A DNA stretch of 32,676 bases from Dehalococcoidia bacterium (GCA_037441825.1 JBBIRL010000002.1:1-32676), one strand, 5' to 3'; positions 6,805-29,591 are shown, numbered from the stretch's first letter. The notes: generated by a model not told the origin, from the letters alone. Numbers and translations are program-made.

Positions 6805-6805
6805 T

Positions 6806-8524: not shown

Positions 8525-8561
8525 AGTTTTCTCCTCACCGCTCGTTTGGAACGATGTACTA

Positions 8562-10226: not shown

Positions 10227-10237
10227 AGCTTTCCTCC

Positions 10238-11980
10238 TTAGCGGGTTGCTACCGATGACGGACGGCTCGGTATTGCCGATTTTTTGCCCTTTTCCGGAAT
10301 ATACCAGGGCGAAGCATACCACCAGTCCCCTGGCTCGGCGATGCCATCCTCTATCAGGATGTGCATCAGATTGTAGCCTACGGCCATCAGGCAGAGGCCA
10401 CCGGGGTGGGCGGATGACTGGTGGGAGAGATACAGGCCGTCAATGCCCGGTACGCGGTAGCGTGCCAGCTCGGGCAGCGGGCGCTCGTTCCACCACTGGT
10501 CCCGGTCACAGCGGAGTCCGTACCAGGAGCCGCCAAGCATCCCGGTATTGCGGAACTCCTGCTCCCGAGGGGATTCCCCTATGATTTGGACGATATTATC
10601 GGAATCAAGATTCTCGACCACCTGGCTGAGTGCTTTGCGCATGTATTCGTTCCACTTGACCTTGTCTTCCATCGCGTCCATGCCGTCCACGTTATACTCC
10701 GGCGTGGGGACCAGCATCCACTGAGGCCCGTTGATATAGACCCCGGGGCGGGTACTCTGGGGGTGACACTCGGCGTAGGTCTCACCGGCAACCATGCCGT
10801 ACATCGCTCTCTCCGGAGGGATGGTGAGGTTGCGCTGATGCCCCATGACCTCCGTCACGTTTTCGAAGTATAGCTCCCGCGAGTCATTGGGAAAGAACGG
10901 ACCCGTGAAAGACCCGTAATTTTCGTACCTGTAGCCGGGCGTCTGGAACTTGGGGCGTACGCGAAGCCGTTCACGGGTCAGATAGTGCGTCATGTAGAGG
11001 CTCCCGCCCTTGAGGCTCAGGTCCTTGATCCTCTGCAGGAAGCCGCTGTCCAGATGCCGGGGACCTATCATTTCGAGGAAGGTCGGTTTTATGTGAACGG
11101 CGCTTATCACCGCCTTATTCGCCCAGATCTTCTTCGCACCCCAGGTAGCATCGTCCCTGAGCCGTACACCGACGGCACGATCGTGCTCGATGATGATCTC
11201 CTCCACGGGGCAGCAGGTGCGCACGACGGCGCCGTGAGCAATTGCACAGCGCAGCAGGGCATGATAGTAGCCGTGGATGTTGCCGCGCGGTGCCACGGGC
11301 ATGGCGACGGCAGGCGGCATGACGGTGGCCACGCTGCACAGGGCCGGGATAGCTGCTCCCTCCATATGGCCGTGGGCCCCCGATACCAGGGCTATCCATG
11401 CCTGGTTCACCTTGAAGGGCTCGGTATCCAGGTACTCGTCCATGAGGTCGAACATAGTCCACTCGAGCAGCTCTCTGGTCCACATGTCCGGCTGGTGCTG
11501 TTTGTATACCTGCATAAAGGGGATGGTGTGCTCATTGAGCTCGACGTGGGGGGGATGCGGCGGACACCAGAAAGTGGCACGCATCAGGTCTTTAAAGAAC
11601 GGGGGATCGGTCAGCAGGCCGGTGATCTTGGCATAACCCATCTTATCTTTATCGGTCACCTGGGACAGGCCATCGCTGGTAGTCATGTACCTGTCAGTGT
11701 CAAATGGGACAATTGCGCCCGCCTTCCAGTCCATGCGGAATCCGTACTTCCATAGCTCCAACTGCTCCCAGCCCGGAGCCGAGCCCCCGTAGTTGGCGAT
11801 GGCATGGGGCTGAATGCGAACGCCGGCTATGGGCTCGCAGGTCTCCTGCGCTCCGCCACACTCCGGCCTCTCTTCCAGCATGCAGACGCTTAATCCGCAC
11901 TTGGCCAGATAGGCTGCAGTAGTTGTGCCGTTGTGGCCTGCACCGATGATGACAATGTCGTACCTTTCTTCCTTGTTCAT
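10238..11980 (-). CDS. CrtI-family FAD oxidoreductase, B-type subunit, copy 2 (GC-rich copy)
   Basis: YDIVIIGAGHNGTTTAAYLAKCG...EERPECGGA and C-terminal LYLSHQSSAHPGG. ATG start with AGGAGG upstream. Confidence 0.85.
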   Translation of the reverse strand: MNKEERYDIVIIGAGHNGTTTAAYLAKCGLSVCMLEERPECGGAQETCEPIAGVRIQPHAIANYGGSAPGWEQLELWKYGFRMDWKAGAIVPFDTDRYMTTSDGLSQVTDKDKMGYAKITGLLTDPPFFKDLMRATFWCPPHPPHVELNEHTIPFMQVYKQHQPDMWTRELLEWTMFDLMDEYLDTEPFKVNQAWIALVSGAHGHMEGAAIPALCSVATVMPPAVAMPVAPRGNIHGYYHALLRCAIAHGAVVRTCCPVEEIIIEHDRAVGVRLRDDATWGAKKIWANKAVISAVHIKPTFLEMIGPRHLDSGFLQRIKDLSLKGGSLYMTHYLTRERLRVRPKFQTPGYRYENYGSFTGPFFPNDSRELYFENVTEVMGHQRNLTIPPERAMYGMVAGETYAECHPQSTRPGVYINGPQWMLVPTPEYNVDGMDAMEDKVKWNEYMRKALSQVVENLDSDNIVQIIGESPREQEFRNTGMLGGSWYGLRCDRDQWWNERPLPELARYRVPGIDGLYLSHQSSAHPGGLCLMAVGYNLMHILIEDGIAEPGDWWYASPWYIPEKGKKSAIPSRPSSVATR

Positions 11981-12021
11981 GTACCACCTCCTATTGATTA
12001 TTTGGTTAAGCCAGTATGGAT

Positions 12022-13668
12022 TTAAGTCAGGTACGTCTTGATATAGCGCTCCATCTCAGGCGTAGTCTTCCACCACTTCTTGACGCCAAGGTCTTCGGCC
12101 ACCTTGTTAGCGCCCAGATAGCCCGGGCCGCCGAGCACCAGTCCTCCCGGATATGTGGATGCGCCGCATACGTAAAGCCCCTCTACAGGAGTCCTGGTGC
12201 TGGAGCATTCCTGATTGGGGCGGAAAGAGCCCAGTTGTATCGGCTTGTAATCCCCATGCTTGATACCGCCGCGGCGCATATTGGGGAAGCGGGTCTCTAT
12301 GTCCACCGGCGTCTCATGGACAGTCATGATGATGTTCTCACGCTTCATATTGGGAGCAACCTTCTGCCATTTCGCCAGAATTGCCTCTTCCATTTCTTTG
12401 CCCTTCTTCTCCCAACCGCCCGGGATTTCGTAGGGGGCGTGCATCTGAAAGAAGGAAGTATGCTTGCCCGGCTTATCGCTGAGGTGGGGATCGTGGAGAG
12501 TCTCGCAGGTGGCGTGCCCGCCGAAATTAGCGCCGATCTTGCCCGCCACCACATTATCCCAGTGGGCCAGAAGTTGCTCTGTGCTTTCGATGCCGAAGAT
12601 GGTCATGAAAGCATCGTTTACCCAGGGGTCGTCGCACTTATAGCGCGGGGGCTCCTCGGAGGCAACATGCAGGGTATAGAAGCTCCACTTGTCGTACTTC
12701 CACCCGTCAATCAAAGCTTTGAAGTCTTTATCCAGGTGCTGTGCTCCGACGAGGTCGAGAAAGGTAGTATGCGGGTCAAGAGTGGACATGACTACCTTAC
12801 TGCGCAGGGTGCGCCCTTCGGCAAGCTCAACTCCGGCAGCCCTCCCATTCTGCACTATTATCTTGTTCACCTCTGCATGTTCCAGAATCAACCCCCCGGC
12901 TTTGACTAGCTCTCTGCCCATAGCGCTGGCAAATTTGTGCGAGCCTCCGTAGCAGTAGCATTTATTCATGCCCCGGTCCAGAAGTAGTGGCACGAAGAAG
13001 CCTATACCGGTCTCCCTGGGGTCGAGCCCCCACATGCAACTGGCATACAGCATCAGGGCTCTAACCCGGTCGTTCTCAAAGGTGTGATTGATGATTTCCA
13101 GCGGGCTCTGCTCAATGAGCTCCAGCATCTCCTGGCCGACCTTGGTCTTCTGGAGAGCCATGCTCATCTCGATTGGGGTCATCGTGGGCACGTAGGTGGC
13201 TGGAGCCACTATCTCGTCTACGATGCGTCTCCAGCTTCTCATCACCTTGCCGAAGTTGACAGCATCCTTAAAGGAGAACTTACTGATTGAATCCTTGGTA
13301 TCCTCTATCATCTGCGTCAGGAGCAGGGACTTGCCATCCTCGAAAACCATGGCTGTTTGCGCATTGGGCTTGATCCAGAGAAGCGAAGCCCCGTCCAGGT
13401 TGAAGTCCTTGATGACGGGCATATAGTCGACCATCATGTGATAGATAACGTGCGGGTTGGAGGAGTAACAGGGATATAATATTTCCTCGGTGGCCAGTCC
13501 TCCTCCGATTTCGTAGCGGCGTTCGATGAGAGCCACTTTCAGCCCTGCTTTAGCCAGATAAGCCGCTGCCATTAATCCATTAGGACCCGCACCTATGATA
13601 ACGGCATCCCATTCGCTATTTTCAGGAAACTCCTGAAACATATGTCCAAAATAGTCGTCTGTCGTCAC
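12022..13668 (-). CDS. CrtI-family FAD oxidoreductase, A-type subunit, copy 3
   Basis: The track start at 13689 is a TTG. GTG 13668 is preceded by AGGAGAAACATC and gives a 548-aa product, the same length as copy 1. Motifs: [37 protein letters not shown]. Confidence 0.8.
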
Positions 13669-13697
13669 GATGTTTCTCCTCTCGGTCAACTGTCATA

Positions 13698-15425
13698 TCA
13701 GCGAGGTATCGCAGAAACCTTTGCCTTTTGGGGTATGTAATACGGCGATGGATACCACCATTTCCCTGGTTCAGCGATACCGTCCTCGATAAGTATGTGC
13801 ATCAGGTTGTAGGGTATAGCCATTAAACACAGACCCCCGGGATGTCCTGTGGTCTGATGGCAGGTATAAAGCCCCTCGATGGGAGTGCGGTATCGAGCCA
13901 GCTCAGGTATGGGACGCCGCGTCCACGACTGGTCACGGCAGTGGCGGGAGCCGCACCAGGTGCCGCCTATGAGGCCGGTATTGCGGAACTCTACTTCCCG
14001 GCCGGTGGCTGACCAGCAGTGGATGATGTTTTCCTCATCAAGCCCGTCCAGCGCCTGACTGAACGCCTTGCGCATATAATCGTCTAGCTTTACTTTTTCT
14101 TTGTCCTGAGCATCGATGCCTTCAATCTGATACTCCGGGACAGGGACATTCACTTCAAAGGCGGCTGAAATATATCCGTTGCGATATTGGCCCTGACAAT
14201 CGGTTGGATTGAATGCCTGAGAAGGAGTTAGGAACCACATTAATTTTTCAGGCGGCAGGGTAGGAAGGCTCTTGCGTGCATCGCAATCAGCCACGTTTTC
14301 ATAGTAGAGCTCCCGTGAGTCCGAGGGGTAAACCCCTCCGGAGGCAACCTTGGCCGGTCCCGAAACACCTGTTTCGCTCTCCTGCATCGCTTTGTATCTT
14401 TGGTTCCACTGGATAGGCTTGCGTGTGTGGTAAGTAGTTACATAAAGCGTGCCATTCTTCAGGCTGATGTCCTTTACTTTCTGAATGAACGATGGGTCGA
14501 GATGCTCTCGCCCTATCATCTTGAGAAAAGTCTGTTTATAGTCGACAGCGGCTATCACTGCTTTGTTCGCCCAGATTTTCCGACCGCCTATCGCTGCTGT
14601 CTCCCTCAGACGTACACCCATCGCTCGCCCATCTTGCACAATGATTTCATCGACGGGGCAGGCCGTACGCACCACTGTGCCGTGGGCTACGGCGCAGCGA
14701 TGGATGGCATGGAAATATCCGTGAAGTCCACCGCGAGGGATGCTCAGTTTACCTGTGTTCGGTAAAATAAGAAGCTGCACACTGAGTAAAGCAGGGATGG
14801 CCACGCCTTCCCAGTGACCGGCGGCTCCCGATGCCCAGGCTGCGAACGCCATAGTTACCTTGAAAGGCTCGCTCTCCAAAAACTCGTCCATAAGCTCGAA
14901 CATCGTCCATTCACGCAGCTCTGGTGTACATACATCGGGCTGGTATTTTTTGTAAACCTGAATGTATGGGGTGTTCTCATCGGTTACTTCCACTTCGGAG
15001 GGATGAGGAGGGCACCAGAAGGTGGCACGCATGAGCTCCTGTGTAAATGGAGGCTGACCAAGCAGGCCGCCGAGCTTGGCGAAACCCATGGCATCCTTCT
15101 CTGTGATGGGAGACACACCTTGAGTGGTAGTGTTACCTGCGGTTAACGATTTCATCATATCAACCGGATTCCAGGCCATGCGAAAACCATACTTGTGAAG
15201 CTCTAGTTGCTCGAAACCCGGAGCGGGGGCTGCGTACATGAGCATGGCATGAGGATAGATTCGTACGCCGGGGATAGGCTCGACAGTCTCGCAGGCCCCT
15301 CCACATTCCACGCGTTCCTCAAGCACGCAGACGCTCAGTCCGCATTTAGCCAGATATGCCGCTGTAGCCATCCCATTGGGGCCTCCACCTACTATGACTA
15401 CATCGTATCTTTCATCCCTGGACAT
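13698..15425 (-). CDS. CrtI-family FAD oxidoreductase, B-type subunit, copy 3; first gene of block 2
   Basis: YDVVIVGGGPNGMATAAYLAKCG...EERVECGGA and C-terminal LYTCHQTTGHPGG. ATG start with AGGAGG upstream. A 489-nt non-coding gap precedes it. Confidence 0.85.
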   Translation of the reverse strand: MSRDERYDVVIVGGGPNGMATAAYLAKCGLSVCVLEERVECGGACETVEPIPGVRIYPHAMLMYAAPAPGFEQLELHKYGFRMAWNPVDMMKSLTAGNTTTQGVSPITEKDAMGFAKLGGLLGQPPFTQELMRATFWCPPHPSEVEVTDENTPYIQVYKKYQPDVCTPELREWTMFELMDEFLESEPFKVTMAFAAWASGAAGHWEGVAIPALLSVQLLILPNTGKLSIPRGGLHGYFHAIHRCAVAHGTVVRTACPVDEIIVQDGRAMGVRLRETAAIGGRKIWANKAVIAAVDYKQTFLKMIGREHLDPSFIQKVKDISLKNGTLYVTTYHTRKPIQWNQRYKAMQESETGVSGPAKVASGGVYPSDSRELYYENVADCDARKSLPTLPPEKLMWFLTPSQAFNPTDCQGQYRNGYISAAFEVNVPVPEYQIEGIDAQDKEKVKLDDYMRKAFSQALDGLDEENIIHCWSATGREVEFRNTGLIGGTWCGSRHCRDQSWTRRPIPELARYRTPIEGLYTCHQTTGHPGGLCLMAIPYNLMHILIEDGIAEPGKWWYPSPYYIPQKAKVSAIPR

Positions 15426-16199: not shown

Positions 16200-16919
16200 T
16201 CACTTACACTCACAGCAATTTGGGTCTTTCTTCAGTCTGACTTCGCTGAATTTCATACTGATCCCATCATATATCAAGAGCCTGTCTGTGAGCAATTCGC
16301 CTATGCCCAGGATATACTTTATTACTTCGGTAGCCTGGATGCAGCCGATAACCGCTGGGGTGACTCCGACCACAGGGATCTTGCCCGGTATAACGCCCTG
16401 GTATAAGCACCTCAAGCACGCTGTCTTGCCTGGGATTACTGTGGTGGCCCTGCCCTCGAAACCGTAGACTGCCCCGTGAAACAAGGGTAGGTTTTTCTTG
16501 ACCGCAACCTGGTTTAGCAGAAACCTTGCCGGAAGATTGTCCATAGCGTCCACTATCAAATAATCACCTACAAGGTCGAACACATTGTTCTCATCGATTG
16601 TTGCCTTTACAGCCTCTACACTGATATGCGGATTAAGCGCCTCGAGCTTCTCTTTAGCCGAGTCAACCTTATTCCTTCCGATGTCTTTATCTGAATGCAG
16701 CACCTGACGGTTCAGGTTGCTGAGTTCCACCTTGTCACCATCTATGATTTTGATTCTTCCCACACCGGCTACGGCTAAATAGGTCAGAATGGCAGAGCCG
16801 AGACCGCCGGCTCCAGCGACCAGAACCTTTGCCTTCTTGAGCTTTTCCTGCCCCGCTTTTGACCAGCCGGGAATCAGTATTTGCCTTTCATATCTGGCTA
16901 GTTCTCGTTTGCTGAGCAT
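16200..16919 (-). CDS. ThiF/MoeB/HesA-family E1-like adenylyltransferase
   Basis: RYERQILIPGW, the nucleotide loop VLVAGAGGLGS, NLNRQ, and paired zinc motifs CLRC and CCEC. The track start 17057 is a TTG whose extension runs through the 32-nt palindrome. ATG 16919 (MLSKRELARYERQ) gives a family-typical length of about 239 aa. Confidence 0.8.
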   Translation of the reverse strand: MLSKRELARYERQILIPGWSKAGQEKLKKAKVLVAGAGGLGSAILTYLAVAGVGRIKIIDGDKVELSNLNRQVLHSDKDIGRNKVDSAKEKLEALNPHISVEAVKATIDENNVFDLVGDYLIVDAMDNLPARFLLNQVAVKKNLPLFHGAVYGFEGRATTVIPGKTACLRCLYQGVIPGKIPVVGVTPAVIGCIQATEVIKYILGIGELLTDRLLIYDGISMKFSEVRLKKDPNCCECK

Positions 16920-17028
16920 CTTTACTATCGCCTCAATAGCAATGGCTACGATGTTGAAAGCACTTTTTGATATTACCGCATTTGGTTTATCATTGCCAGT
17001 GGAGCCTCTCGTCAATGGGAGTACCTGT

Positions 17029-17060
17029 CCCCCGCGGGGGACAGGTACTCGACTCAAGGA
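17029..17060. repeat. Perfect 32-nt GC-rich palindrome (GAGTACCTGTCCCCCG|CGGGGGACAGGTACTC), 18 nt downstream of the AOR stop
   Basis: Verified base by base; the flanking bases 17028 and 17061 do not pair. Both strands translate to PVPRGGQVL in the ORF track, as expected for a palindrome. No U-tract follows on the transcribed strand, so it is not a canonical intrinsic terminator. Confidence 0.9.
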
Positions 17061-18985: not shown

Positions 18986-20008
18986 TTAGTAGGGGCCGCG
19001 CTTTAAGTGCTCCTTCAACCTCAGATAAGAAATATAAGTTATATTTTGCTTGCGGTTCACGTATTTCTCCAAGGGAACGAGCTGTTTCCTCTTTCGCTCT
19101 ATTTGATTGCGCACAACCAGGCTCATGGCATTGCTGGCTCCGGAGCCATAGGAAGCAAGCAGTATTGTCTCATCTGGCTTTGCCTTATCCAGAACGTTAG
19201 CCAGGCTGATAAAAGCCGAGCAAGACCCCAGGTCGCCCACAACCGAGGCCAGGGCAGGTGCCAACTGGCCTTTTTGTATCCCCAGCTCTTTTGCGGGCAG
19301 ACTCGGAATCCTCTCATCTGGCTGCGCAAAGACTGCGTAGGTGTAATCTTGAGCCTTCTTGCTCAATTTCCCCAGTAGCCCTTTACAGGCCCCGGCCACG
19401 TGTGTTTGATAGCCGTATTCGCGGTCGAACCTGTAATCAGCCTGGTTCGATACCCATGAGTCTTTGGCTGAACGCCACCTATCCATAAATAGGGTGGCAT
19501 AGGTATCTATATCTTCAATATCTGCTATGGTACCTGTTGTCCCGATAACCATAGCCACAGCCCCGGCGCCGAAGTTGGCATCACCTTCGGTTCCCGGAGC
19601 GGTAGCCCTATCTTCCCCGCCGAGTACAAGACCGCACTTTATCCTTTTGGCGGCTATCGCATCCAGACATCCTAGCACGGCGTTGCCAAGTGAGTTCAGG
19701 GATCCCAGATAATCTATCCTGGTAGTCTCGGGGCGCACGCCCAGTATTTCGCCTATAATCGGCGACACATATTGCTCGATATAGGGTGAAGAAGCAGTGC
19801 CGAAGTATATTGCGCCTATTTGCTCGGGGTTAATGGCTGCATGTCTCATTGCGTTGCCGGCCGCCTCAGCGGCCATGGTTACGACATCCTCATCGGCTCC
19901 GCAAACAGACTTCTCGCCGGGAGCCCAGCTACCCCAGGGTATCGCGATATCCTTTTGTTCAATCCGAAACTTCGGTATGTACACTCCATATCCGATAATA
20001 CCAGCCAC
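18986..20008 (-). CDS. HMG-CoA-synthase-like / KAS-III-like thiolase-fold protein, apparently catalytically degenerate
   Basis: The archaeal-HMGCS-like N-terminus is IIGYGVYIPKFRI...ADEDVVTMAAEAA. The expected nucleophile Cys position reads GS(103)LNSLG, and the expected FHxP His reads FA(228)QP. ATG start with AGGAGG upstream. Confidence 0.75.
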   Translation of the reverse strand: MAGIIGYGVYIPKFRIEQKDIAIPWGSWAPGEKSVCGADEDVVTMAAEAAGNAMRHAAINPEQIGAIYFGTASSPYIEQYVSPIIGEILGVRPETTRIDYLGSLNSLGNAVLGCLDAIAAKRIKCGLVLGGEDRATAPGTEGDANFGAGAVAMVIGTTGTIADIEDIDTYATLFMDRWRSAKDSWVSNQADYRFDREYGYQTHVAGACKGLLGKLSKKAQDYTYAVFAQPDERIPSLPAKELGIQKGQLAPALASVVGDLGSCSAFISLANVLDKAKPDETILLASYGSGASNAMSLVVRNQIERKRKQLVPLEKYVNRKQNITYISYLRLKEHLKRGPY

Positions 20009-20030
20009 ATTTGCCTCCTAAAATGATGTT

Positions 20031-21221
20031 TTACCTGGAACGAGATAGAATGTTAACCACAGCAGCGCCGAACGCAGGCCCGCCTACATTCTGTTGCAGG
20101 CCGATGCCATTCTTGAGTTTCACCTGGCGTTTGTCCGCTTCCTCCCGCAACTGGGTGACGACCTCGAAGATTTGCCCCAGCCCGGTTGCTGCTATCGGGT
20201 GTCCGTGCGCTTTCAAGCCACCGCTGGGGTTGATAGGAAGCTTTCCGTGCATGTCGAACTCGCCATCCTTAAGCTTTTTGGCAGCTTCCCCGCTGCGCGC
20301 AAAACCTACATCCTCAATATCCATCAACTCAGTGTTGGTAAAGCAGTCGTGCAATTCGGCGAAGTCAACATCTTTTGGTTTGATGCCAGCCATTTCGAAG
20401 GCTCCTTTAGCGGCCCTGACCACGGAAGGCTGCGAAACGAAGCTGCTTCTATCCCAAAGCTGGTTGTGGTCTAATCCGGTGTGGCTGCCCCAAACGTAGA
20501 CAGGCTTGTCGGTATATTTCTTAGCCAGGTCAGCACGACATACAATCGCAGCGGCTGCCCCGTCGGTCTGAGGGCAGCAATCGAATAGATGAAGCGGCCA
20601 ACATATGACCGGGCTGTTAAGCACGCGCTCTACAGTTATCTCGAACTGATAGTGTGCATACGGACAAAGGCTCCCGTTATGGTGATTCTTGACAGCTACC
20701 CTGGCGAAGTCCTCCATGGTGTATCCGAGCTCGTGCATCTGCCTGGTAGCATGCATCGCCTGAATCGCTGGCCCGCCCTGTCCCATCATCCAGGAGGGGT
20801 GGTTGCCTGTCTCTGCGCCGCCGCCGCCGCCAGCGCCGCCCAGTGATTCAGCGGAAGGCTTGTCTCTCATTTTCTCTGCGCCGAGTGCGAGCACAACATC
20901 ATAGACTCCTGAAGCCACACCCAGGCAGGCGTTTCTGAAGGTGTCGCCTCCGGTGGGACAGGCATTTTCAATTCTGCTGCAAGACAGGTTAAGGTTGCCG
21001 ATCATGCTTGCCAGAGATTGACCGCCCTGAGCACCCTGACCTATGAAACCTCCGCTCCACTGTCCGAACCAGGCAGCCTTGATTTCTTTGGGGTCTATCC
21101 CCTTTTCAACGTTTTTCAGACAATTTAGATATGCTTCCTGAATCATATTCTCCAGGCTCTTATCGAAAAGCTCTCCGAACTTAATCATTCCCACCCCGAT
21201 GACAGCGACCTTGCCTTTCAT
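20031..21221 (-). CDS. SCP-x/archaeal-type thiolase (acetyl-CoA C-acyltransferase family), copy 1
   Basis: KVAVIGVGMIKFGE, the nucleophile motif ENACPTGG, and NPSGGLKAHGHPIAATG. I prefer ATG 21221, which lies 1 nt after the DUF35 stop with GGAGGAGGG upstream. The track ORF extends to ATG 21263. Confidence 0.85.
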   Translation of the reverse strand: MKGKVAVIGVGMIKFGELFDKSLENMIQEAYLNCLKNVEKGIDPKEIKAAWFGQWSGGFIGQGAQGGQSLASMIGNLNLSCSRIENACPTGGDTFRNACLGVASGVYDVVLALGAEKMRDKPSAESLGGAGGGGGAETGNHPSWMMGQGGPAIQAMHATRQMHELGYTMEDFARVAVKNHHNGSLCPYAHYQFEITVERVLNSPVICWPLHLFDCCPQTDGAAAAIVCRADLAKKYTDKPVYVWGSHTGLDHNQLWDRSSFVSQPSVVRAAKGAFEMAGIKPKDVDFAELHDCFTNTELMDIEDVGFARSGEAAKKLKDGEFDMHGKLPINPSGGLKAHGHPIAATGLGQIFEVVTQLREEADKRQVKLKNGIGLQQNVGGPAFGAAVVNILSRSR

Positions 21222-21222
21222 C

Positions 21223-21627
21223 TTATCCCTCCTCCGCCAGTCTGAATTTGTAACCGTAGACATTGAGCCCTCTATCGGTTAACATCCTGCGGAATACCAT
21301 TTCGACCTTGGTGCCTATTTTGATTTCATCTGGCGAACCGCACTCGGTCATTATCCCACCGTATCTGCCGCCTCCTTCGAGGTCAACGATAACGGGTAAA
21401 ATGGGTGGCTCAAACTGGGGTGGGGGTGCCCAGTTCACGCAAAATGTGTGTATTGTTCCTCTTTGGGGGAGCTTATATTCCTTGAGATTTTGGCTGCCAC
21501 ATTCATGGCATATCTTGGTTCGAGGATAACTGATATGACCACAATCCTGGCACTTGATGCCTACCAGTCTATGGACCTCAGTGTTAAATCGCCAGTACAT
21601 CGGCGATGCAGGTACTGGTTGTGTCAT
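21223..21627 (-). CDS. DUF35-family Zn-ribbon + OB-fold protein (thiolase scaffold, BbsA-like)
   Basis: Rubredoxin-like CQDC...CHEC followed by an OB-fold-length tail. The track start 21633 is a TTG. ATG 21627 has AGGAGG 7 nt upstream. Confidence 0.8.
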   Translation of the reverse strand: MTQPVPASPMYWRFNTEVHRLVGIKCQDCGHISYPRTKICHECGSQNLKEYKLPQRGTIHTFCVNWAPPPQFEPPILPVIVDLEGGGRYGGIMTECGSPDEIKIGTKVEMVFRRMLTDRGLNVYGYKFRLAEEG

Positions 21628-21678
21628 TAGCAAACCTCCTAACTCTATTTTAATACTAAAGCTTCCGCCAAGTTAACT

Positions 21679-22878
21679 TTATCGTGGTAATTCCAGTCCT
21701 CGCATGGCGATGACATTTCGCTGAATCTCGGATGTGCCTCCTCCTATATTTATGCTGATACATTCCTGGTAGGCGCTTTCAAACCTGCCCCTGAGAGGCG
21801 CCCATTTAGAGCCAGCCTTCACTTGACCATAGAGACCGAGAATCCGGGAGCCGGCATAGGCCAGGCGCTGTCCCAGCTCACTTCCGTAGACTTTACCTGT
21901 ACAGGCTGTAACAGCGGCCGGAATCATAAACGCCTCCCCTTTCTGCTGAAGCCAGGCTACCTTGTAGGAGAGAGCAAGACCCACCTCCACGTCGATAGTC
22001 AATTGCGTCAGAAGTTGGCGAACCAGAGGCTGTTCCGAAAGGCACTTACCATTTCGTTTGGTTTCTTTACAATACTCTATAAGCTCCTCGAGGTTTCGTT
22101 TGGCCTCTGCCATGAATCCTATGCTCGATCTTTCAAAGTTCATGGTCATCAGGCTGACATACCAACCCCTGTTCTCATCTCCCACCATGTTCTCTTTAGG
22201 TACTTTGACATCGTCGAAGTACATTTCGTTGAACATGTGCGTGCTATTCAAAGCCTTCACAGGGCGGAGATTGATACCTGGCGAACTCATATCCACGAGA
22301 AAGAACGAAAGGCCTCGATGCCGGGGTTGCTCTGGGTCTGTCCTTGCCAGCATAAAGCACCATTGAGCGCGATGCGCACCACTTGTCCAGGTCTTCTGCC
22401 CATTGATGATATAGTAGTCTCCGTTCCTGACGGCCCTCGTCTTCAGCGAAGCCAGGTCGGAGCCGGCGTTGGGTTCGCTCCAGCCCTGGCACCACATAAT
22501 CTCACCGTGGGCTATGGGTGGCAGATGCTGCTGTTTCTGCTCCTCGTTACCTGACGCAAGAAGGGTGGGCGCGAGCATTCCCACGCCCTGTACGTCTATG
22601 CCCGGTGCCCTGTAGTACGCTTTAGCCGCAGTGAACAGGAGTTGCTCCATGATAGGCGCTGCCTGCCCGCCGTATTGTCTGGGCCAGGGGCGGGAGAGCC
22701 ATCCTCTCTCTCCGAGCCTCCTCGCCATATAGCGATGGAAGTCCCATGCCTCATCGTTATCATAGATGTTTTCTGCCCCCCGAGGTGGCGCCTTTTTCAT
22801 CTCCTCTCTGAAGAAATTCTCGAATTCCGCCTTTAACGCTTCTTGCTCAGGAGTGAGACGGAAATCCAATATGACCAC
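21679..22878 (-). CDS. Acyl-CoA dehydrogenase
   Basis: The N-terminus DFRLTPEQEALK is typical of the family, and GGGTSEIQRNVIA holds the C-terminal catalytic Glu region. The start is uncertain: GTG 22878, or TTG 22869 giving MDFRLTPEQ. Confidence 0.85.
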   Translation of the reverse strand: MVILDFRLTPEQEALKAEFENFFREEMKKAPPRGAENIYDNDEAWDFHRYMARRLGERGWLSRPWPRQYGGQAAPIMEQLLFTAAKAYYRAPGIDVQGVGMLAPTLLASGNEEQKQQHLPPIAHGEIMWCQGWSEPNAGSDLASLKTRAVRNGDYYIINGQKTWTSGAHRAQWCFMLARTDPEQPRHRGLSFFLVDMSSPGINLRPVKALNSTHMFNEMYFDDVKVPKENMVGDENRGWYVSLMTMNFERSSIGFMAEAKRNLEELIEYCKETKRNGKCLSEQPLVRQLLTQLTIDVEVGLALSYKVAWLQQKGEAFMIPAAVTACTGKVYGSELGQRLAYAGSRILGLYGQVKAGSKWAPLRGRFESAYQECISINIGGGTSEIQRNVIAMRGLELPR

Positions 22879-22899
22879 CCCCTTCTAAGTCTTGTTTAC

Positions 22900-24069
22900 T
22901 CAAAGCCCGACAATGCAGACGCTGACTGTGGGCGCCAGGGGCTCGTGTCCCATATTGTGAGCAAGTCCCAACTTGGGATTCTTTATCTGACGTTTGCCTG
23001 CTCTGCCCTGAAGCTGAAGGTAGAGCTCATACAGCATCCTTATCCCTGATGCGCCGATGGGATGGCCGAAGCACTTCAAGCCTCCGTCTGGCTGCACCGG
23101 CAGGGCGCCGCTGAGTTCAAAAATCCCTGCATCGATGTCGTCTTTGACCTTTCCCCTTGGGCTGAACTGGAGGTCCTCCATCGTAACAGCCTCAGTGATG
23201 GAGAAACAGTCGTGTACCTCTGCCATGCTTATTTCCTTGCGAGGGTTCTTAATTCCCGCTTCTTTGTAAGCCGCCATGCCGGCCCGGTATCCTTCTTCTA
23301 CATGGGTGAAATCGTAGTCTGTAGTTACGCGGCCGGAGGTAGGACTGGCACATATCTGTAGAGCCTTGATATATACCGGATCCGGACGGAATTTTTTAGC
23401 TATATCGGCACGGGTGATAATGGCAGCGGCGCCGCCATCGGAAACGCCGCAACAATCGAACAGGCCAAGAGGCCAGGCGATGATAGGAGCATTCAGCACC
23501 CGCTCCACGGTTAGCACATTTCTCAGATGGGCCTTGGGATTCAAGGAGCCGTTATAATGACTCTTCACAGATATCTTGGCCAGCATAGTTTTGCCTTCTT
23601 GAGGACTCAAACCATAACGATGGAAGTACTTGGTTGCCATCATGGCGAACATGCCCGGCATGGTCGCTACGGCATGAGTATGAGTCATATTATCCATGCC
23701 TGGCAGACCACTCATTCCCTCATCCTTGATTTTCTCAAAACCAACGGCAAGAACGATATCGTAAATGCCGGCAGCCACAGAATAGGAGGCATTTCTCACA
23801 GCATCGTGTCCGGAGGCGCAGGCGTTTACTACGTGGCTGACAGGGATGTATTGTAACCTCAGCGGCTCGCTGACGGAGCGCCCTCCGTGTCCGCTGAAAA
23901 TACTGCCCGCCCAGGCAGCCTCGATATCCTTAATCTCAATGCCGGCATCGGCTACGGCCTCATTAACAGCTTCCACAATAAGGTCGCTGGGGCCCTTGCC
24001 CCACAATTCACCAAACCGGGTGCAGCCCATACCTACAATGGCAACCCGGTCTTTAATGCTCCCTGACAT
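22900..24069 (-). CDS. SCP-x/archaeal-type thiolase, copy 2
   Basis: RVAIVGMGCTRFGE, NACASGHDA, and QPDGGLKCFGHPIGASG. ATG start with AGGAGG upstream. Confidence 0.85.
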   Translation of the reverse strand: MSGSIKDRVAIVGMGCTRFGELWGKGPSDLIVEAVNEAVADAGIEIKDIEAAWAGSIFSGHGGRSVSEPLRLQYIPVSHVVNACASGHDAVRNASYSVAAGIYDIVLAVGFEKIKDEGMSGLPGMDNMTHTHAVATMPGMFAMMATKYFHRYGLSPQEGKTMLAKISVKSHYNGSLNPKAHLRNVLTVERVLNAPIIAWPLGLFDCCGVSDGGAAAIITRADIAKKFRPDPVYIKALQICASPTSGRVTTDYDFTHVEEGYRAGMAAYKEAGIKNPRKEISMAEVHDCFSITEAVTMEDLQFSPRGKVKDDIDAGIFELSGALPVQPDGGLKCFGHPIGASGIRMLYELYLQLQGRAGKRQIKNPKLGLAHNMGHEPLAPTVSVCIVGL

Positions 24070-24081
24070 ATCTTGCCTCCT

Positions 24082-25530
24082 TTAACACCTTATGGGGCGA
24101 GCCTTCCAGTAATAGCTGGTGATACCCCGGTCGACGAAGACCTTCCTGAAAGTCATCTCCACCTTCATCCCCACCTTAACATCATCCGGGTTCCGGTCGG
24201 TAAGGTCGAACAACATCCTACCACCGTCTTCGAAGTCGATCAGCACTACAGAAGAGGGCGGGTCAGCAGCCGGCGCCAGTTGGTCCAGGGTGTAGCTGAA
24301 CACAGTAGCCTTCTTTCTGGAGAAGTCATAGTCGTCGAAGTCATCCACTGCCCCGCATACCGCACAGACGCGGATAGGTGTTGTAGTAATGCCTCCGTTA
24401 TCATACTGAGGTGTCTTACAGCGCCTGCATTTGATTCCCCAGAGCCCCAGGAGGTCTTTTCTCTGCCTCCAGTTGGCTGCTACGGATATGTGTCCTCTCT
24501 CAGGACGCCTCGCTTGGTCGAGGGGGACGATTTCACGCCAGCGGAGGTAGTCATTATAGTTGTTCATCATATGTTTTGACTCGAGATGCTTGGCAAATCC
24601 ACGGCGCTCCCCCAGCTTCTTTATGGCATCGGTTACCTGCAACACAAATGCATCGGCCCCATTCCCGTAGCCAGCGAAGAGGATTTTATCTCCAGGCTCA
24701 GCTTGTTCCAGAGCGCTTACCAGCATCACGAAGGACATGGCAGATCCCAGAAGTCCTACATTCATAAAGATGCCCGCCGGGTCAAGTAATTGAGTGGGTT
24801 CAAAGCCTAGCTCCGCTGCTACCCGGCCATGCCTCCTGACGTCACCGGGCGGGTCGAAGACCACCTTGGCGAAGTCCTTGGGCTCGAGGCCGCTTTTCTT
24901 CATCAGCCCTGATAACGCCTCGGGCATGACCTTAGAGTAGCTTTCGTCCATCATCATGCGGTCTTCCCAGGAACGAATGAAAGTATCGGTTTCGCTCCGC
25001 CAGGTTGCTGCCAGCTCGTCAGAGATCGAGTAGCTGTCCAAAATCTCGGCGATAACATTCTTCTTGCCCAGAAGTAGGGCGCCTGCACTGTCACCCAGTG
25101 CCTGCTCGTTTATACCTGACGGGGCAGCCATGCGGGTATCGGAGGCGGTTACCAGCATACTGTTTGTTCTTTTAGCCTTTATAGCATCTAGAGCGAATCC
25201 CAGGGCAGTTGCCCCAGAGCGTGGTGAGCCTGTGATATCTGCCGTTGGGATATCCCGGCGCAGGTGTAGCGCCAGGGCCATCGTGGCTGAGCATAGCTTC
25301 TCCTTGTATGGAGATGTAGTAGTTGCAAAGAGGAGGCCGTCAACTGTAGAGGGGTCTATATCTCTCAGGCAATCTATAGCTGCTTCCACAGCCATGGTCA
25401 CGCTATCCTCGTCATAGTAAGCGATCGCCCTTTCTCCAGGTATAGCAAAGCCTCCCCATGCCTTGGCAAAATTCTGTCGGTCTATGCGTTGCCAGGGGAT
25501 ATAGGCACCATACGAGGTTATGCCTATCAT
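24082..25530 (-). CDS. Fusion protein with an HMG-CoA-synthase-like thiolase-fold domain (N-terminal, about 340 aa) and a DUF35 Zn-ribbon/OB-fold domain (C-terminal). First gene of block 1.
   Basis: The N-terminus is ITSYGAYIPWQRI...YDEDSVTMAVEAA. The Cys position reads GS(102)PRSG and the FHxP position reads FD(226)PP. The C-terminus has CRRC...CAVCG followed by an OB-fold-like VEMTFRKVF. ATG start with AGGAG upstream. Confidence 0.8.
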   Translation of the reverse strand: MIGITSYGAYIPWQRIDRQNFAKAWGGFAIPGERAIAYYDEDSVTMAVEAAIDCLRDIDPSTVDGLLFATTTSPYKEKLCSATMALALHLRRDIPTADITGSPRSGATALGFALDAIKAKRTNSMLVTASDTRMAAPSGINEQALGDSAGALLLGKKNVIAEILDSYSISDELAATWRSETDTFIRSWEDRMMMDESYSKVMPEALSGLMKKSGLEPKDFAKVVFDPPGDVRRHGRVAAELGFEPTQLLDPAGIFMNVGLLGSAMSFVMLVSALEQAEPGDKILFAGYGNGADAFVLQVTDAIKKLGERRGFAKHLESKHMMNNYNDYLRWREIVPLDQARRPERGHISVAANWRQRKDLLGLWGIKCRRCKTPQYDNGGITTTPIRVCAVCGAVDDFDDYDFSRKKATVFSYTLDQLAPAADPPSSVVLIDFEDGGRMLFDLTDRNPDDVKVGMKVEMTFRKVFVDRGITSYYWKARPIRC

Positions 25531-25553
25531 GGAAATCTCCTTTCAACCGCCTA

Positions 25554-25575
25554 ACAAGGGGCTCAAGCCCCTTGT
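25554..25575 (-). promoter_or_regulatory. 5'-UTR stem-loop (ACAAGGGGC-TCAA-GCCCCTTGT; 9-bp stem, 4-nt loop), about 24 nt upstream of the block 1 start codon
   Basis: A perfect inverted repeat read directly from the sequence. No U-tract follows on either strand. Its function is unknown. Confidence 0.4.
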
Positions 25576-25703
25576 CTACCTCAGCACTTCTGCGTTCACT
25601 GACTGCTGGCCCTATGTGTTATCTGGGTTATCGTCTTAGTGTCCTAATTTCCTAACTCTGAGGATAAAACCTTGACCAGCCTCTGAATATAGTGTTGGTA
25701 CTT

Positions 25704-25731
25704 ATTTTATCCCACTGCTCTTTCCTGACAA
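25704..25731 (-). promoter_or_regulatory. Candidate sigma70-type promoter for block 1 (TTGTCA-N16-TAAAAT on the minus strand)
   Basis: The reverse complement reads aacagTTGTCAggaaagagcagtgggaTAAAATaagtacc. It rests on a hexamer match only. Confidence 0.3.
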
Positions 25732-25876
25732 CTGTTAAGGGGTAACACTATATAAGGTAGTGGTGGCATGGTGTAGACAACAGTGTTGACACCTGACATA
25801 ATAGTGTCAGTGAGTATAAGATAACTAAATGCTTCTAGCAAGAGTGAGCGAGCAGCGGTCTGGGAGGAGAAAACGT

Positions 25877-26539
25877 ATGGAGAAAACGAGACTTCTCGTT
25901 GTAGATGATGAGGCTCTTTTCCGGGAGCTTTTATGTCGCACTTTGTCGGCAGAACCAGGGCTGGAGGTGATAGGGGTGGCAGGAGACGGAGATAGTGCGG
26001 TCCAATTTGCCAGGAGGGAGAAGCCGGATGTGGTGATTATGGATATCGAGCTACCTGGTAAGCTTGACGGGATTGAAGCAGCTCTACAGATCAAGAAGGA
26101 GAAGCCGCAAACTGGAATTGTTATCCTGTCTGCTCACAGTGAGCGACGTTATGTGACAAGCTTACCCCTCGAGGACATACAAGGGTGGGCTTATCTTTTG
26201 AAACAAACAGCGCCGGACCTTGCCACAGTCGTGCGCGCCATCGAAGGGAGTAAGGCAGGGATGGTGGTGTTGGATCCCACAGTAGTGGCGGGTCTTCGTC
26301 CCAGGCAAGGCTCGGCTGTGGCCAGGTTGAACCCCAGGCATCAGGAAGTATTGGAGTTCCTCGCTCAGGGGTATAGCAACACTGCCATAGCCCAGTTGCT
26401 GAAATTGTCCCGTAAATCGGTTGAAACCTACATAAATGCCATATACCAGGAACTGCATCTTTCCCACGAACAGGATATCCACGCCCGGGTCAAAGCGACA
26501 CTTCTCTATCTGGAAAGCTCTAGGAGCCGTCAAGGATAG
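25877..26539 (+). CDS. NarL/LuxR-family response regulator (REC + LuxR-type HTH)
   Basis: LLVVDDEALFRE, the phospho-acceptor region DVVIMDIELPG, and the HTH EVLEFLAQGYSNTAIAQLLKLSRKSVETYINAIYQEL. ATG 25877 is preceded by GGGAGGAG. The track ORF starts further upstream at 25829. Confidence 0.85.
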   Translation: MEKTRLLVVDDEALFRELLCRTLSAEPGLEVIGVAGDGDSAVQFARREKPDVVIMDIELPGKLDGIEAALQIKKEKPQTGIVILSAHSERRYVTSLPLEDIQGWAYLLKQTAPDLATVVRAIEGSKAGMVVLDPTVVAGLRPRQGSAVARLNPRHQEVLEFLAQGYSNTAIAQLLKLSRKSVETYINAIYQELHLSHEQDIHARVKATLLYLESSRSRQG

Positions 26540-26640
26540 ACGAGGAAAATCGTCAAGCTGGCACTATGTTATCTGTCCTCAGAGCCGTTACTCTAGTTAT
26601 GGGCGGAGAGGTAAGGCCCATACGCGGGGAGAGATGCATA

Positions 26641-27009
26641 GTGTACAGAGTCGTTGTAGTTGATGACGAGCCGGAGTTTCGCGAATGGCTTAAGTCGTTG
26701 ATGGAAAACAGCAAAGACTTCAAATTAGTGGGCGAGGCTAAAACAGGAACAGAAGCCGTTTACCTCATTCCATCGCTCTTGCCGGACCTTGTGATCGCAG
26801 ATATGTATATGCCGGAGCCGGATGGCTTGGAGGTGGCCCGCTATGTTCAGCACCATTTCTCAGACATCAAAGCGATACTTGTTAGTGCCTACGAGGAGCG
26901 TGTCTATGAAAGGCTGGCGAGGGAAGAAGGTGCGCTGGCATTTATTCCGAAAGCGAGGCTTTCTCTGGATGCCCTGCGCCAGGCCCTGAAAGGGGAAGTA
27001 AAGCCGTGA
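26641..27009 (+). CDS. Stand-alone receiver-domain response regulator (CheY-like)
   Basis: VVVVDDEPEF, DLVIADMYMPEPDG and ILVSAY, with no output domain. GTG 26641 is preceded by GGGGAGAG. The track ORF starts at 26566. Confidence 0.75.
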   Translation: MYRVVVVDDEPEFREWLKSLMENSKDFKLVGEAKTGTEAVYLIPSLLPDLVIADMYMPEPDGLEVARYVQHHFSDIKAILVSAYEERVYERLAREEGALAFIPKARLSLDALRQALKGEVKP

Positions 27010-29311
27010 CTTCAGTCCCTTCGCCTGGAGCGCTTCTGATAGTGCACTTGCCGCCGCCTACCTCGGCATAGTCCTGCATCATCAATAAACCCCGTCCGCC
27101 GGAGATGCTCCTTGGTTCGAATCCCTGGGCATTATCGCGCAGCGTCAGGAACAGCCATTCCTTAGGAAGCAGCTTTAATCCCATAGTGATTTTGCTTGCC
27201 TTGGTATGCTTGACCACATTGGTCAGGGCTTCCTCGGCGATACGATATGCTGCAAGCCTCACCCTCTCCGAAATCAACTGGGGATTTAGCCTTTCCTGCC
27301 GCATGAGTTCTTCATCCAATTCCATCTCGATGTTCAAGGATACCTCAAATTGGTCTCCTAATGACTGCAGAGCCGCAACCAACCCCCGGCGCAGGATAGA
27401 GGGATAGAGCCTGTGGCTGATGGGGCGGACGTGGTTATCCAGCAACTCACTCAATTTCTGGTGCAGGTCTCTTATTTCTTGAGCCAGCTCCCCCGCCGGC
27501 GCCTTGCGCTCCAGTTCAGTAAGCCGATGCAGCAGGATGATAAGCCTGTTCTGGACTGACCCGTGGAGCTGCTGCGCAATGTCCCTGCGCACCGACTCTT
27601 GTGCGACTATAATTCGTTGCAGCGATAGCTGCAATTCCTCCGCTCTGGCCAGGGCTGCCGCATGTTCAACCCGTTCCTGTTCCGCTATTTTGCGTTCGGT
27701 GATGTCGCGAAAATTGGTGAGAATACCGCCCACAACCGGGTCGTTAAGGAAATTTCTAGCCATAACCTCAAGAGTACGCCATGAGCCGTCTCTGTGCTGT
27801 GCGCGCAGTTCGCCTTGGTGCGTAGAACCGGGCTTTTTGACCAGCTCGGTGAATGTCTTAATGACGTATGCTTTATCATCGGGATGGATAAACATAAATG
27901 AGTTCCTGCCTTTATGCTCGTCAACCTTGTATCCTAACACACGTTCAATTGAGGGGCTTTGGTACAGAATGTCTCCATCGCTGTTAAGTATCGCAACATC
28001 GTCCAATGAGTTCTCGATCATCACCCGAAAATGCTCTTCCCTCTGCTTCAGCGTTTCCTGAGCACGCTGACGCTCGGTCACATCACGGTAATTGATAACG
28101 ATACCCTTAACCGCTGGATTATTGAGAAGATTATTTGCGGTTCCTTCCATTATGTGCCCCGTACCATCCTTATGCAGGAAGCGGATTGCTGCAGGTATTG
28201 CCTGCGCCGGATGTTTGGAGAGCCTCTTGAATGTTTTGATAACTTTTTCTCTATCGTCTGGATGAATAAAGTCAAGTATGTTCTTTCCCACCAATTCTTC
28301 AGGTTTAAGGCCGATTATCCTTTCTGCGGATGGACTTTCATAACTTATCGTAAGGTCCTCATTTACAATCGCGATGCCGTCCAGAGAGTTCTCAATGAGC
28401 GCTCGGAAGTGTTCCTCTCTTTCCCGCAGCATTTCCTCAGTCCATTTGCGCTCCGTGATATCCCGGGCATTGACTACAAAACCCCTGACAGAAGGGTCAT
28501 CGACAAGGTTATTCGTGATACCTTCAACTATATGCCATGAGCCGTCTTTGTGCCGGAAACGTACCTCCAGGGCTACAGGTTGGCGGGGATTTTTGGTGAA
28601 GTTGTCAAGATTGGCGGTGATATACTGTACATCTTCGGGGGAAAGGAACTCCAGTGCATTCTTGCCAACTACCTCTTCCGGATGGTAACCCATTATCCGT
28701 TCCACGGAAGGGCTCACGTAGCGGACGGTCATGTCGCTATTCGTAATCAGGCTGATGTCCATAGAATTCTCGACGAGTACCCTGAAGTTCTCCTCTCTTT
28801 TCCTGAGCGCCTCCTCCGCTCGCTTACGCTTGGTGATGTCTCTCATGACAGCGACCAGCGTTTTAGGAACCCCCTCTGCATCTTTGATAACCGAAGCGGC
28901 AAAACTGATAGCGATTTCCTCTCCGGATTTGCTCACAGCGCGGATATCTATATGTTCAGAGCTACCCTTCTCCAAGACCTCTTTCAAGGCATTTTTTGCC
29001 CTTTCTCTATCAATTGTCCTGCGGTATGTGGGCAAATTAAGAGCAGACGTTCCGATCAGTTCACTTGCCTTGTATCCGAGCAGTTTTTCAAAAGCCTTGT
29101 TGACATAAACTACTTTGCCCTCTGTATCTACAAGCATAACCCCATCGGGCATCTCTTCGATGGCTGCTGATCTCACCAGCTTGCGCTTAAGCTGTGCTGC
29201 GTCAATCCACCCTCTCTCGGAATTTGACTTCTCAAGTTCCGCGACGCGCTTGTGAAGGGTCTCCAATTCCATTATGAGTTGGTTCTTGGCCTTATCTGCA
29301 TTTTTGGCCAT
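26942..29311 (-). CDS. Soluble multi-PAS sensor histidine kinase (about four PAS domains + HisKA_3 + HATPase_c)
   Basis: Repeated PAS units are joined by a conserved RDITERK...REEHFRxLIENSLD linker. The H-box is IAQQLHGSVQNRL, with ATPase motifs EALTNVVKH, DNAQGF and GRGLLMMQ. I saw no hydrophobic transmembrane segment. ATG 29311 (MAKNADKAK) has GGGAGTGAG upstream, while the track start 29386 has no ribosome-binding site. Confidence 0.85.
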   Translation of the reverse strand: MAKNADKAKNQLIMELETLHKRVAELEKSNSERGWIDAAQLKRKLVRSAAIEEMPDGVMLVDTEGKVVYVNKAFEKLLGYKASELIGTSALNLPTYRRTIDRERAKNALKEVLEKGSSEHIDIRAVSKSGEEIAISFAASVIKDAEGVPKTLVAVMRDITKRKRAEEALRKREENFRVLVENSMDISLITNSDMTVRYVSPSVERIMGYHPEEVVGKNALEFLSPEDVQYITANLDNFTKNPRQPVALEVRFRHKDGSWHIVEGITNNLVDDPSVRGFVVNARDITERKWTEEMLREREEHFRALIENSLDGIAIVNEDLTISYESPSAERIIGLKPEELVGKNILDFIHPDDREKVIKTFKRLSKHPAQAIPAAIRFLHKDGTGHIMEGTANNLLNNPAVKGIVINYRDVTERQRAQETLKQREEHFRVMIENSLDDVAILNSDGDILYQSPSIERVLGYKVDEHKGRNSFMFIHPDDKAYVIKTFTELVKKPGSTHQGELRAQHRDGSWRTLEVMARNFLNDPVVGGILTNFRDITERKIAEQERVEHAAALARAEELQLSLQRIIVAQESVRRDIAQQLHGSVQNRLIILLHRLTELERKAPAGELAQEIRDLHQKLSELLDNHVRPISHRLYPSILRRGLVAALQSLGDQFEVSLNIEMELDEELMRQERLNPQLISERVRLAAYRIAEEALTNVVKHTKASKITMGLKLLPKEWLFLTLRDNAQGFEPRSISGGRGLLMMQDYAEVGGGKCTIRSAPGEGTEVTALLPLSGPGAGHPEKASLSE

Positions 29312-29591
29312 GATGCCGCTCACTCCCAGCCGCTTTTTTGCCGAGGCACAATTTCCAGACGAACTCGCTAGTGTAACAAAAAGCATATCAAAAACACCGA
29401 ATTAACGCAACTTGCCAGGAGGTTCTCTAACGAACTGCGCTTGCATAGAAGTAAGGAGAAACGGGAAAGGCGAGAACATTGGCCCGGTTGTGTACCAGTA
29501 ATTGTGGGACTTTGACGAATGCCGGATGTGAATATAGAATTATTAGGGCAAGTACGTTGGTTTCTACCCGGTTAAATAAAGGTGTTGAAAT

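Follow-up and report, generated by a model that had tools for sequence, protein, structure and literature searches.

Three DUF35-bridged complexes that join a thiolase-type enzyme to a subunit resembling 3-hydroxy-3-methylglutaryl-CoA (HMG-CoA) synthase (HMGS or HMGCS) have been solved. In that of M. thermolithotrophicus (6ESQ/6ET9) acetoacetyl-CoA is channelled to HMG-CoA for the mevalonate pathway by an HMGCS with the full catalytic tetrad, E82/C114/H238/N270 in 6ESQ numbering (PMC12960953; PMC6392133), and an archaeal HMGS mutated at all four positions is inactive (PMC12960953). The other two, PhlACB (PpATase; 5M3K/5MG5) and MucABC (SmaATase; 9VBO/9VBT), are encoded in biosynthetic clusters, use aromatic or tetramate acceptors and contain a dead HMGS-like subunit; PhlA lacks both the Cys and the Glu, only PhlC is catalytic, and PhlA and PhlB are required for functional assembly (PMC6392133). 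A fused HMGS-DUF35 protein of P. fluorescens that lacks the tetrad, combined with an ACAT carrying an HDxF motif, cleaved acetoacetyl-CoA and made neither HMG-CoA nor acetoacetyl-CoA (PMC12960953). Dead subunits of this kind (PhlA, MucA, PfHMGS-DUF35) do not catalyse, yet assembly or activity depends on them (PMC6392133, PMC12960953). Liao et al. (Nat Commun 2026) count ~1,000 orphan bacterial loci with HMGS, ACAT and DUF35 and describe the fused type as an evolutionary intermediate, with no pathway attached (PMC12960953). Here we consider a 32,676-nt stretch of DNA from a Dehalococcoidia bacterium (GCA_037441825.1 JBBIRL010000002.1:1-32676), referred to in what follows as the window, that encodes two gene sets of this type: set 1 consists of a fused HMGS-like–DUF35 protein (the fusion) and thiolase 1, and set 2 of a separate DUF35 protein, thiolase 2 and HMGS-like protein 2.

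With a probability of roughly 0.7, the two sets form two DUF35-bridged complexes in which only the thiolase is catalytic, the HMGS-like subunit is a dead scaffold and 3-oxoacyl-CoA is thiolysed in the degradative direction. The three elements, a scaffold of dead HMGS-like type, fusion to DUF35 and a thiolase left intact, are already described elsewhere (PhlA 2018, MucA 2026, Liao et al. 2026). What is new is the tandem arrangement of a fused and an unfused set in a Dehalococcoidia subclade, linked to an aldehyde:ferredoxin oxidoreductase family protein (AOR) and CtmAB-like flavoenzymes, the use of SDR/SCP2 fusions as evidence for a physiological role, and a set 2 protein that passes the PRK04262 cut-off.

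An earlier, sequence-only reading of the window had proposed that both HMGS-like proteins have lost the catalytic Cys and His, have kept the catalytic Glu, and are non-canonical, acting as scaffolds or with altered chemistry. We have aligned the two proteins in three ways, by phmmer against the PDB, in a MAFFT alignment of 244 sequences with M. thermolithotrophicus HMGCS and PhlA as anchors, and through a family profile against S. aureus MvaS, with 6ESQ, 5M3K (PhlA) and 1XPL (MvaS) as structural references. All three place A72/L104/A228/D259 of HMGS-like protein 2 and T71/P103/D226/L260 of the fusion at the positions of E82/C114/H238/N270, where PhlA has C/G/Q/D and MucA C/E/Q/Y. As aligned, neither protein retains any of the four E-C-H-N residues. 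Loss of the Cys and of the His, the latter to Ala228 in set 2 and Asp226 in the fusion, is therefore borne out against both archaeal HMGCS and MvaS, no alignment putting a Cys and a His at the catalytic positions, and the residue numbers that had been given (S103, S102, A228, D226) are correct. The nucleophile itself had been read as Ser, and in this only the absence of Cys holds: S103 and S102 lie one residue before the Cys site, facing Ala113 of HMGCS and Ala110 of MvaS, and the aligned residues are Leu104 and Pro103. The Glu had been misplaced altogether, as that of the D-E-D motif (E50 in the archaeal enzyme), though conserved, is non-catalytic and is present in dead PhlA as well. The true catalytic Glu, found in GSES in the archaeal enzyme (the MvaS equivalents are E79/C111/H233), is replaced by Ala72 and Thr71, and the fourth tetrad residue, Asn270, by Asp259 and Leu260. 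With Glu and Asn gone too, the case for dead HMGS-like proteins is stronger than had been stated.

In order to gauge how far this pattern extends we used 120 close relatives of each HMGS-like protein (120 + 120) and an exhaustive search of 1.84 billion representatives. The search returned 543 clusters at E ≤ 1e-30, and the best 150 of these comprise 130 full-length fusions that reach down to 32% identity; proteobacterial and actinobacterial relatives lie at 31-35%. A Cys at position 114 occurs in 0/240 close relatives and 0/130 diverse fused representatives, Glu82 in none of the 130 and His238 in one. The four zinc-ribbon cysteines are present in at least 126 of the 130; in the fusion these are C368/C371/C389/C392, invariant among its close relatives, and OB_ChsH2_C covers residues 406-462. 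Homologs share the loss of the tetrad, a Ser/Thr beside the Cys site and the fusion to DUF35; Asp226, the other part of the pattern looked for, is invariant among close relatives but not conserved at greater depth. The former nucleophile position is Leu in 112/120 close relatives and 91/130 diverse representatives; Pro, encoded in the fusion at window positions 25222-25224, is rare there (1/120 and 6/130). Full-length relatives of the fusion are also found on haloarchaeal plasmids (Natrinema, Haladaptatus, Haloprofundus), so that the fused, presumably dead form extends beyond bacteria.

The same conservation bears on whether the HMGS-like subunits have some other role, either through a Ser-based acyl-enzyme or as a second acyl-CoA site that hands substrate to the thiolase, which we regard as quite unlikely. 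The Ser/Thr directly before the lost Cys is found in 120/130 diverse representatives and in MucA and hardly varies in either close family; Thr occupies the Glu82 position in 113/130; both HMGS-like families are under strong purifying selection; and the interfacial chamber is reported to be kept in the dead PhlA and MucA complexes. On the other hand, the His and Glu are gone with no alternative His/Asp conserved across the superfamily, bulky hydrophobics (L/V/I/P) fill the nucleophile position itself, and PhlA and MucA share the pattern with no catalytic role detected in them. A substitute triad of S102 with D226/H234 in the fusion was considered and rejected as a family feature: D226 and H234 are invariant among the close relatives, but at superfamily depth position 226 becomes Y/P/A/S and only 39/130 have H234. 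As these were the only candidate residues, the altered-chemistry branch of the earlier proposal is unsupported.

The predicted folds point to the scaffold reading as well. AlphaFold2 (AF2) models of the fusion and of HMGS-like protein 2 have pLDDT values of 67.5 and 80.2, respectively. Foldseek ranks PhlA first, 6ESQ HMGCS second and MucA third for the fusion, and 6ESQ HMGCS (TM 0.80) ahead of PhlA and MucA for set 2, so that the top matches are the HMGS-like subunits of all three solved DUF35-bridged complexes. The models are consistent with the initiation-enzyme fold of the thiolase superfamily, the matches to 6ESQ_I/J, PhlA and MucA being followed by MvaS and FabH. Among solved folds, those of PhlACB and MucABC, dodecamer-type assemblies with three components including DUF35, come nearest to the fusion. 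Low-confidence segments coincide in the two models (approximately residues 13-40, 134-145 and 175-193), which would fit loops that become ordered only within a complex.

Database annotation would make at least set 2 a genuine HMG-CoA synthase complex of the mevalonate pathway. Set 2 has the three-gene content and the three-separate-gene format of the archaeal complex, which is also its best sequence and fold match (34% identity, TM 0.80), and its HMGS-like protein exceeds the NF003274/PRK04262 equivalog cut-off (288 vs 244 bits; the fusion, at 212.5, falls below). The same protein fails TIGR00748, however, with 232 bits against a cut-off of 353 (146 for the fusion), and neither HMGS-like protein is matched by Pfam HMG_CoA_synt_N/C. 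No mevalonate-pathway genes were found in the window. None of the four catalytic residues remains (A/L/A/D stand in their place), and the corresponding archaeal quadruple mutant is inactive, which refutes a canonical HMG-CoA synthase identity at the level of sequence; the annotation is almost certainly wrong. Genes of this family are nevertheless widely named "hydroxymethylglutaryl-CoA synthase": automated pipelines give the set 2 protein this name because it passes PRK04262, many relatives bear it too, and metabolic reconstructions could wrongly infer a mevalonate pathway in Chloroflexota.

The thiolases, by comparison, are strictly intact in their catalytic motifs. Both keep the NAC nucleophile motif that had been noted in them (NACAS and NACPT), and the Cys, HDCF and GHP elements are shared by all 77 orthologs of thiolase 1 and all 12 of thiolase 2. 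HDCF is the thiolase signature. The top PDB match of each is the ACAT of the archaeal complex, 6ESQ_A (E-values of 5e-59 and 2e-72), followed by SCP2-type thiolases and BbsB. Relative to archaeal ACAT, thiolase 2 carries a glycine-rich insertion, GGAGGGGGAETGNHPSWMMGQGG, at residues ~127-150, in the loop that follows its first catalytic domain; this insertion may form a lid or part of the substrate pocket and so set thiolase 2 apart from thiolase 1.

These motifs decide against Friedel-Crafts C-acyltransferases of the PhlACB/MucABC type and against retro-aldolases of the Ltp2/Sal type, either of which we consider very improbable. The three-component architecture and dead HMGS-like subunit are common to PhlACB and MucABC, and an aldolase would give the downstream AOR an aldehyde to oxidize, much as Sal precedes an aldehyde dehydrogenase in bile-acid degradation. 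However, HDxF is no longer present in PhlC and MucB, the acyltransferases (PMC12960953), and in the aldolases HDCF is replaced by YDHF in Ltp2 and by YDCY in Sal (PMC12329534). Both window thiolases and all 89 orthologs retain HDCF, archaeal ACAT outscores PhlC and MucB by far against both, and the window holds no polyketide synthase (PKS) or nonribosomal peptide synthetase (NRPS). The retro-aldolase was rejected on the motif test, and the acyltransferase on retained HDxF together with the lack of a biosynthetic gene cluster. DUF35 is, moreover, free or fused to the HMGS-like protein here and not carried on a MaoC hydratase as in the ChsH2/Shy partners of Ltp2 and Sal. Loss of the tetrad, intact thiolases, fold matches and published precedent together support the earlier view that the HMGS-like proteins are non-canonical and probably scaffolds.

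Two further described systems bear comparison. The benzoylsuccinyl-CoA thiolase BbsAB (7PXP), like other thiolase/DUF35 pairs, is a degradative SCP2-type HDxF thiolase with a DUF35 zinc-finger subunit from anaerobic catabolism, but it is without the HMGS-like third component. Membership of the window genes in that family was rejected, with BbsA scoring 38 vs 250 bits and BbsB 189 and 140 vs 750 bits; no bbs or glycyl-radical genes were found in the window. The closer parallel, compared through its published description, is P. fluorescens PfACAT/HMGS-DUF35, which set 1 resembles in every feature described: it likewise pairs a tetrad-less fusion with an SCP2-type thiolase that has Cys, HDxF and GHx, and lies at a locus with no PKS/NRPS context. 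The sequence traits of the bacterial inactive-HMGS complexes are present, namely absence of the tetrad, DUF35 fused or adjacent, and a neighbouring thiolase with Cys/HDxF/GHx. The window differs in adding a tandem unfused set, an intercalated acyl-CoA dehydrogenase (ACAD) and an AOR, and whereas the P. fluorescens complex was assayed with acetoacetyl-CoA only, the contexts examined here indicate β-oxidation.

Some of these contexts involve longer family members. In a Deltaproteobacteria metagenome-assembled genome (MAG) a 911-residue protein (P0268, L086 6001-8736) continues as HMGS-like–DUF35–SDR–SCP2, and other forms end in –SDR (800 residues) or –SCP2–SCP2 (722 residues) (the P0374 and P0287 family members, the latter at L087). 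An SCP2-type thiolase is the next gene in each case, and such extended fusions recur on independent contigs. Besides the scaffold-SDR-SCP2 gene itself, the operon of the 911-residue protein comprises genes for an ACAD/ACOX-like protein, for an MFE-2-like hydratase-SDR-SCP2 protein and for the SCP2-type thiolase. Cultured Variovorax, Rhodococcus DK17 and Azoarcus KH32C carry the fusion and thiolase genes on megaplasmids, surrounded by those for SDR, MaoC, crotonase, ACAD and CoA-transferase. It is the P. fluorescens precedent, the SDR/SCP2 fusions and these β-oxidation neighbourhoods that lead us to scaffolded degradative thiolases, and the last two suggest that function as a testable one for the orphan loci.

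A biosynthetic direction has to be weighed against this. The thiolases could condense acyl-CoA with acetyl-CoA, in reverse β-oxidation or fatty-acid synthesis independent of acyl carrier protein, with the dead HMGS-like/DUF35 scaffold recruiting the next enzymes and so pulling an unfavourable Claisen condensation, as in the archaeal ketothiolase/DUF35/reductase/dehydratase system. In Sulfolobus DUF35 mediates a fatty-acid synthase complex of ketothiolase, ketoacyl-CoA reductase and MaoC dehydratase (bioRxiv 10.1101/2024.07.05.601840). The SDR fused in some family members is a possible ketoacyl-CoA reductase, the nearest match of both thiolases is the biosynthetic archaeal ACAT, and some set-2-type operons have non-catabolic neighbourhoods. 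Yet an active HMGS, the exergonic partner, is precisely the part that has been lost, and the P. fluorescens fused complex cleaved acetoacetyl-CoA and made none from acetyl-CoA. Neighbouring genes encode ACADs, CoA transferases/ligases and regulators of the TetR/LysR type, as is usual in catabolism, and neither an enoyl-CoA reductase nor an ETF was found in the window. Synthesis is in our judgement unlikely, and we favour thiolysis.

The analysis itself shows how the genes are arranged and paired, that the HMGS tetrad is lost while the thiolase motifs are strictly kept, the fold, and a β-oxidation context; the physical assembly, reaction direction and substrate identity of the two complexes we infer as follows. 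By analogy with the archaeal, PhlACB and MucABC assemblies, the dead HMGS-like subunit would form a dimer core to which the zinc-ribbon/OB modules of DUF35 clamp thiolase dimers, and it would supply one wall of a common CoA/substrate chamber. The thiolases would cleave the 3-oxoacyl-CoA of a β-oxidation-like pathway thiolytically to give acetyl- or propionyl-CoA, with the co-transcribed ACAD supplying an earlier step and the AOR feeding in acids from aldehydes. The SCP2-type thiolases and CtmAB-like neighbours suggest that the substrate may carry methyl branches or derive from isoprenoids. Several observations count against degradative thiolases on a dead scaffold. Both HMGS-like families are highly conserved, with mean column identities of 71-72% and the near-invariant Ser/Thr beside the lost Cys, and the subunits may retain a ligand-binding or catalytic role. 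Some set-2-type operons lie in housekeeping-like, non-catabolic contexts, so that their role need not be strictly catabolic. The 32.7-kb window has no gene for an enoyl-CoA hydratase or a 3-hydroxyacyl-CoA dehydrogenase, and a full β-oxidation cycle therefore cannot be read from it alone. Finally, the model of the fusion is of moderate confidence only, and the proteins of both sets and their Dehalococcoidia homologs are known from sequence and predicted models.

The fusion is encoded in at least 159 species-representative genomes, mainly Dehalococcoidia/Chloroflexota MAGs, with further carriers among Desulfobacteraceae, Syntrophaceae, Nitrospinae, Spirochaetota and Thermodesulfobacteriota; it is common for one genome to have several paralogs. 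Across 82 loci the order fusion then thiolase is nearly universal and the thiolase is always better conserved than the HMGS-like scaffold. A set 2 immediately downstream is limited to loci whose fusion shares at least ~71% identity with that of the window, and the intercalated ACAD is restricted to the closest relatives; an AOR follows set 2 in at least 7 loci of related genomes. Operons of the set 2 type (DUF35–thiolase–HMGS-like) also occur on their own. Since fusion and thiolase occur without set 2 and set-2-type operons stand alone, the two sets are separable modules that have been joined in one Dehalococcoidia subclade. A single obligatory hetero-complex of both sets is unsupported for the same reason, most fusion-thiolase loci being without set 2, and within this subclade cross-assembly between the sets may occur. 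Tandem arrays of fusion and thiolase are seen (L074, with three consecutive pairs, L025 and L049), and many MAGs have two to three dispersed paralogs; the arrays and paralogs suggest diversification by substrate.

The features of the operon are listed in Table 1. The six genes of the two sets and the ACAD between them lie on the minus strand where the sequence-only reading had located them, according to the listing of open reading frames (ORFs), and Pfam and NCBIfam return the domain content proposed for them. Eight minus-strand genes, from the fusion through to the ThiF/MoeB-family gene, are joined by gaps of 1-53 nt.

Table 1. Features of the operon and its upstream region, in window coordinates.
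Feature	Position (nt)	Strand	Details
Candidate promoter/leader region	25531..25828	-	298-nt intergenic gap; divergent LuxR-type response regulator gene beyond
Fused HMGS-like–DUF35 protein, 482 aa	24082..25530	-	ORF and Pfam/NCBIfam domains
HMGS-like domain of fusion, aa 1-~340	~24511-25530	-	
Zn-ribbon/OB DUF35 domain of fusion, aa ~350-482	24082-~24483	-	
SCP2-type thiolase 1, 389 aa	22900..24069	-	Partner of fusion; Cys84 (NACAS), HDCF at 286, GHP at 335
ACAD, 399 aa	21679..22878	-	Top model PimC-like large subunit, below cut-off
Stand-alone DUF35, set 2 bridging subunit	21223..21633	-	zf-ChsH2 and OB_ChsH2_C; likely ATG start 21627
SCP2-type thiolase 2, 396 aa	20031..21221	-	Cys88 (NACPT), HDCF at 291, GHP at 340
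Stand-alone HMGS-like protein 2, 340 aa	18986..20008	-	GTG start
AOR, tungsten-type, 617 aa	17079..18932	-	Co-transcribed downstream of set 2
ThiF/MoeB-family protein	16200..17057	-	Final gene of tight operon

The gap upstream of the fusion contains a sigma-70-like site (25731..25704, minus strand; 10/12 matches, a consensus match only) and a GGAG ribosome-binding site that precedes the ATG of the fusion gene. Divergently transcribed beyond it (25829-29386) are a LuxR/GerE-type response regulator, a stand-alone receiver protein and a four-PAS histidine kinase. The trio is also divergent at a 78%-identical locus (L002 1-9612) and is probably the operon's dedicated regulator. At the other end of the operon, the ThiF/MoeB-family protein probably serves pterin cofactor maturation for the AOR.

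Six CrtI/CrtO-like flavoproteins are encoded at 5158-15425 on the minus strand as three α/β pairs. Identity among the α subunits (13698, 10238, 6806) is 55-62% and among the β subunits (12022, 8562, 5158) 70-75%, as against ~23-26% between α and β. Five of the six have G-x5-H-A near the N-terminus (GVRIxPHA / G[FY]YSNMHA), which resembles the covalent-flavin (FMN) site of limonene dehydrogenase CtmAB and sterol Δ24-desaturase; a PDB search with one CtmAB-like subunit gave weak CrtI matches only. Similar flavoenzyme pairs and AORs recur near fusion-thiolase pairs in more distant loci, a context that points weakly to a pathway for isoprenoid-like substrates. As a tentative and rather doubtful extension, the operon and the three CtmAB/Δ24-desaturase-like pairs might constitute an undescribed anaerobic Dehalococcoidia pathway for isoprenoid-type (allylic-methyl) hydrocarbons or lipids, with the two complexes alternating rounds. 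Flavin-dependent hydroxylation/desaturation would be followed by aldehyde oxidation by the tungsten AOR, CoA activation and β-oxidation, and the fused and unfused complexes would specialize in 2-methyl-branched vs unbranched 3-oxoacyl-CoA, releasing propionyl- vs acetyl-CoA. If true, this would give the ~1,000 orphan bacterial HMGS/ACAT/DUF35 loci a physiological role. A literature search combining Dehalococcoidia, DUF35, thiolase and AOR found nothing, and a broader one nothing on function in anaerobes. The link of AOR and CtmAB-like enzymes in an uncultured Dehalococcoidia subclade is a hint that recalcitrant lipids or terpenoids may be broken down anaerobically in sediments.

Next to the flavoenzyme genes (1810-5084, minus strand) are those of three paralogous proteins of 306-326 residues, which combine a segment rich in Cys (CxCCxCCC) with a 2x[4Fe-4S] ferredoxin domain at the C-terminus; as each flavoenzyme pair has one of them, they may be the electron acceptors of the pairs. 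A CobW/HypB-type GTPase is encoded at 780-1457.

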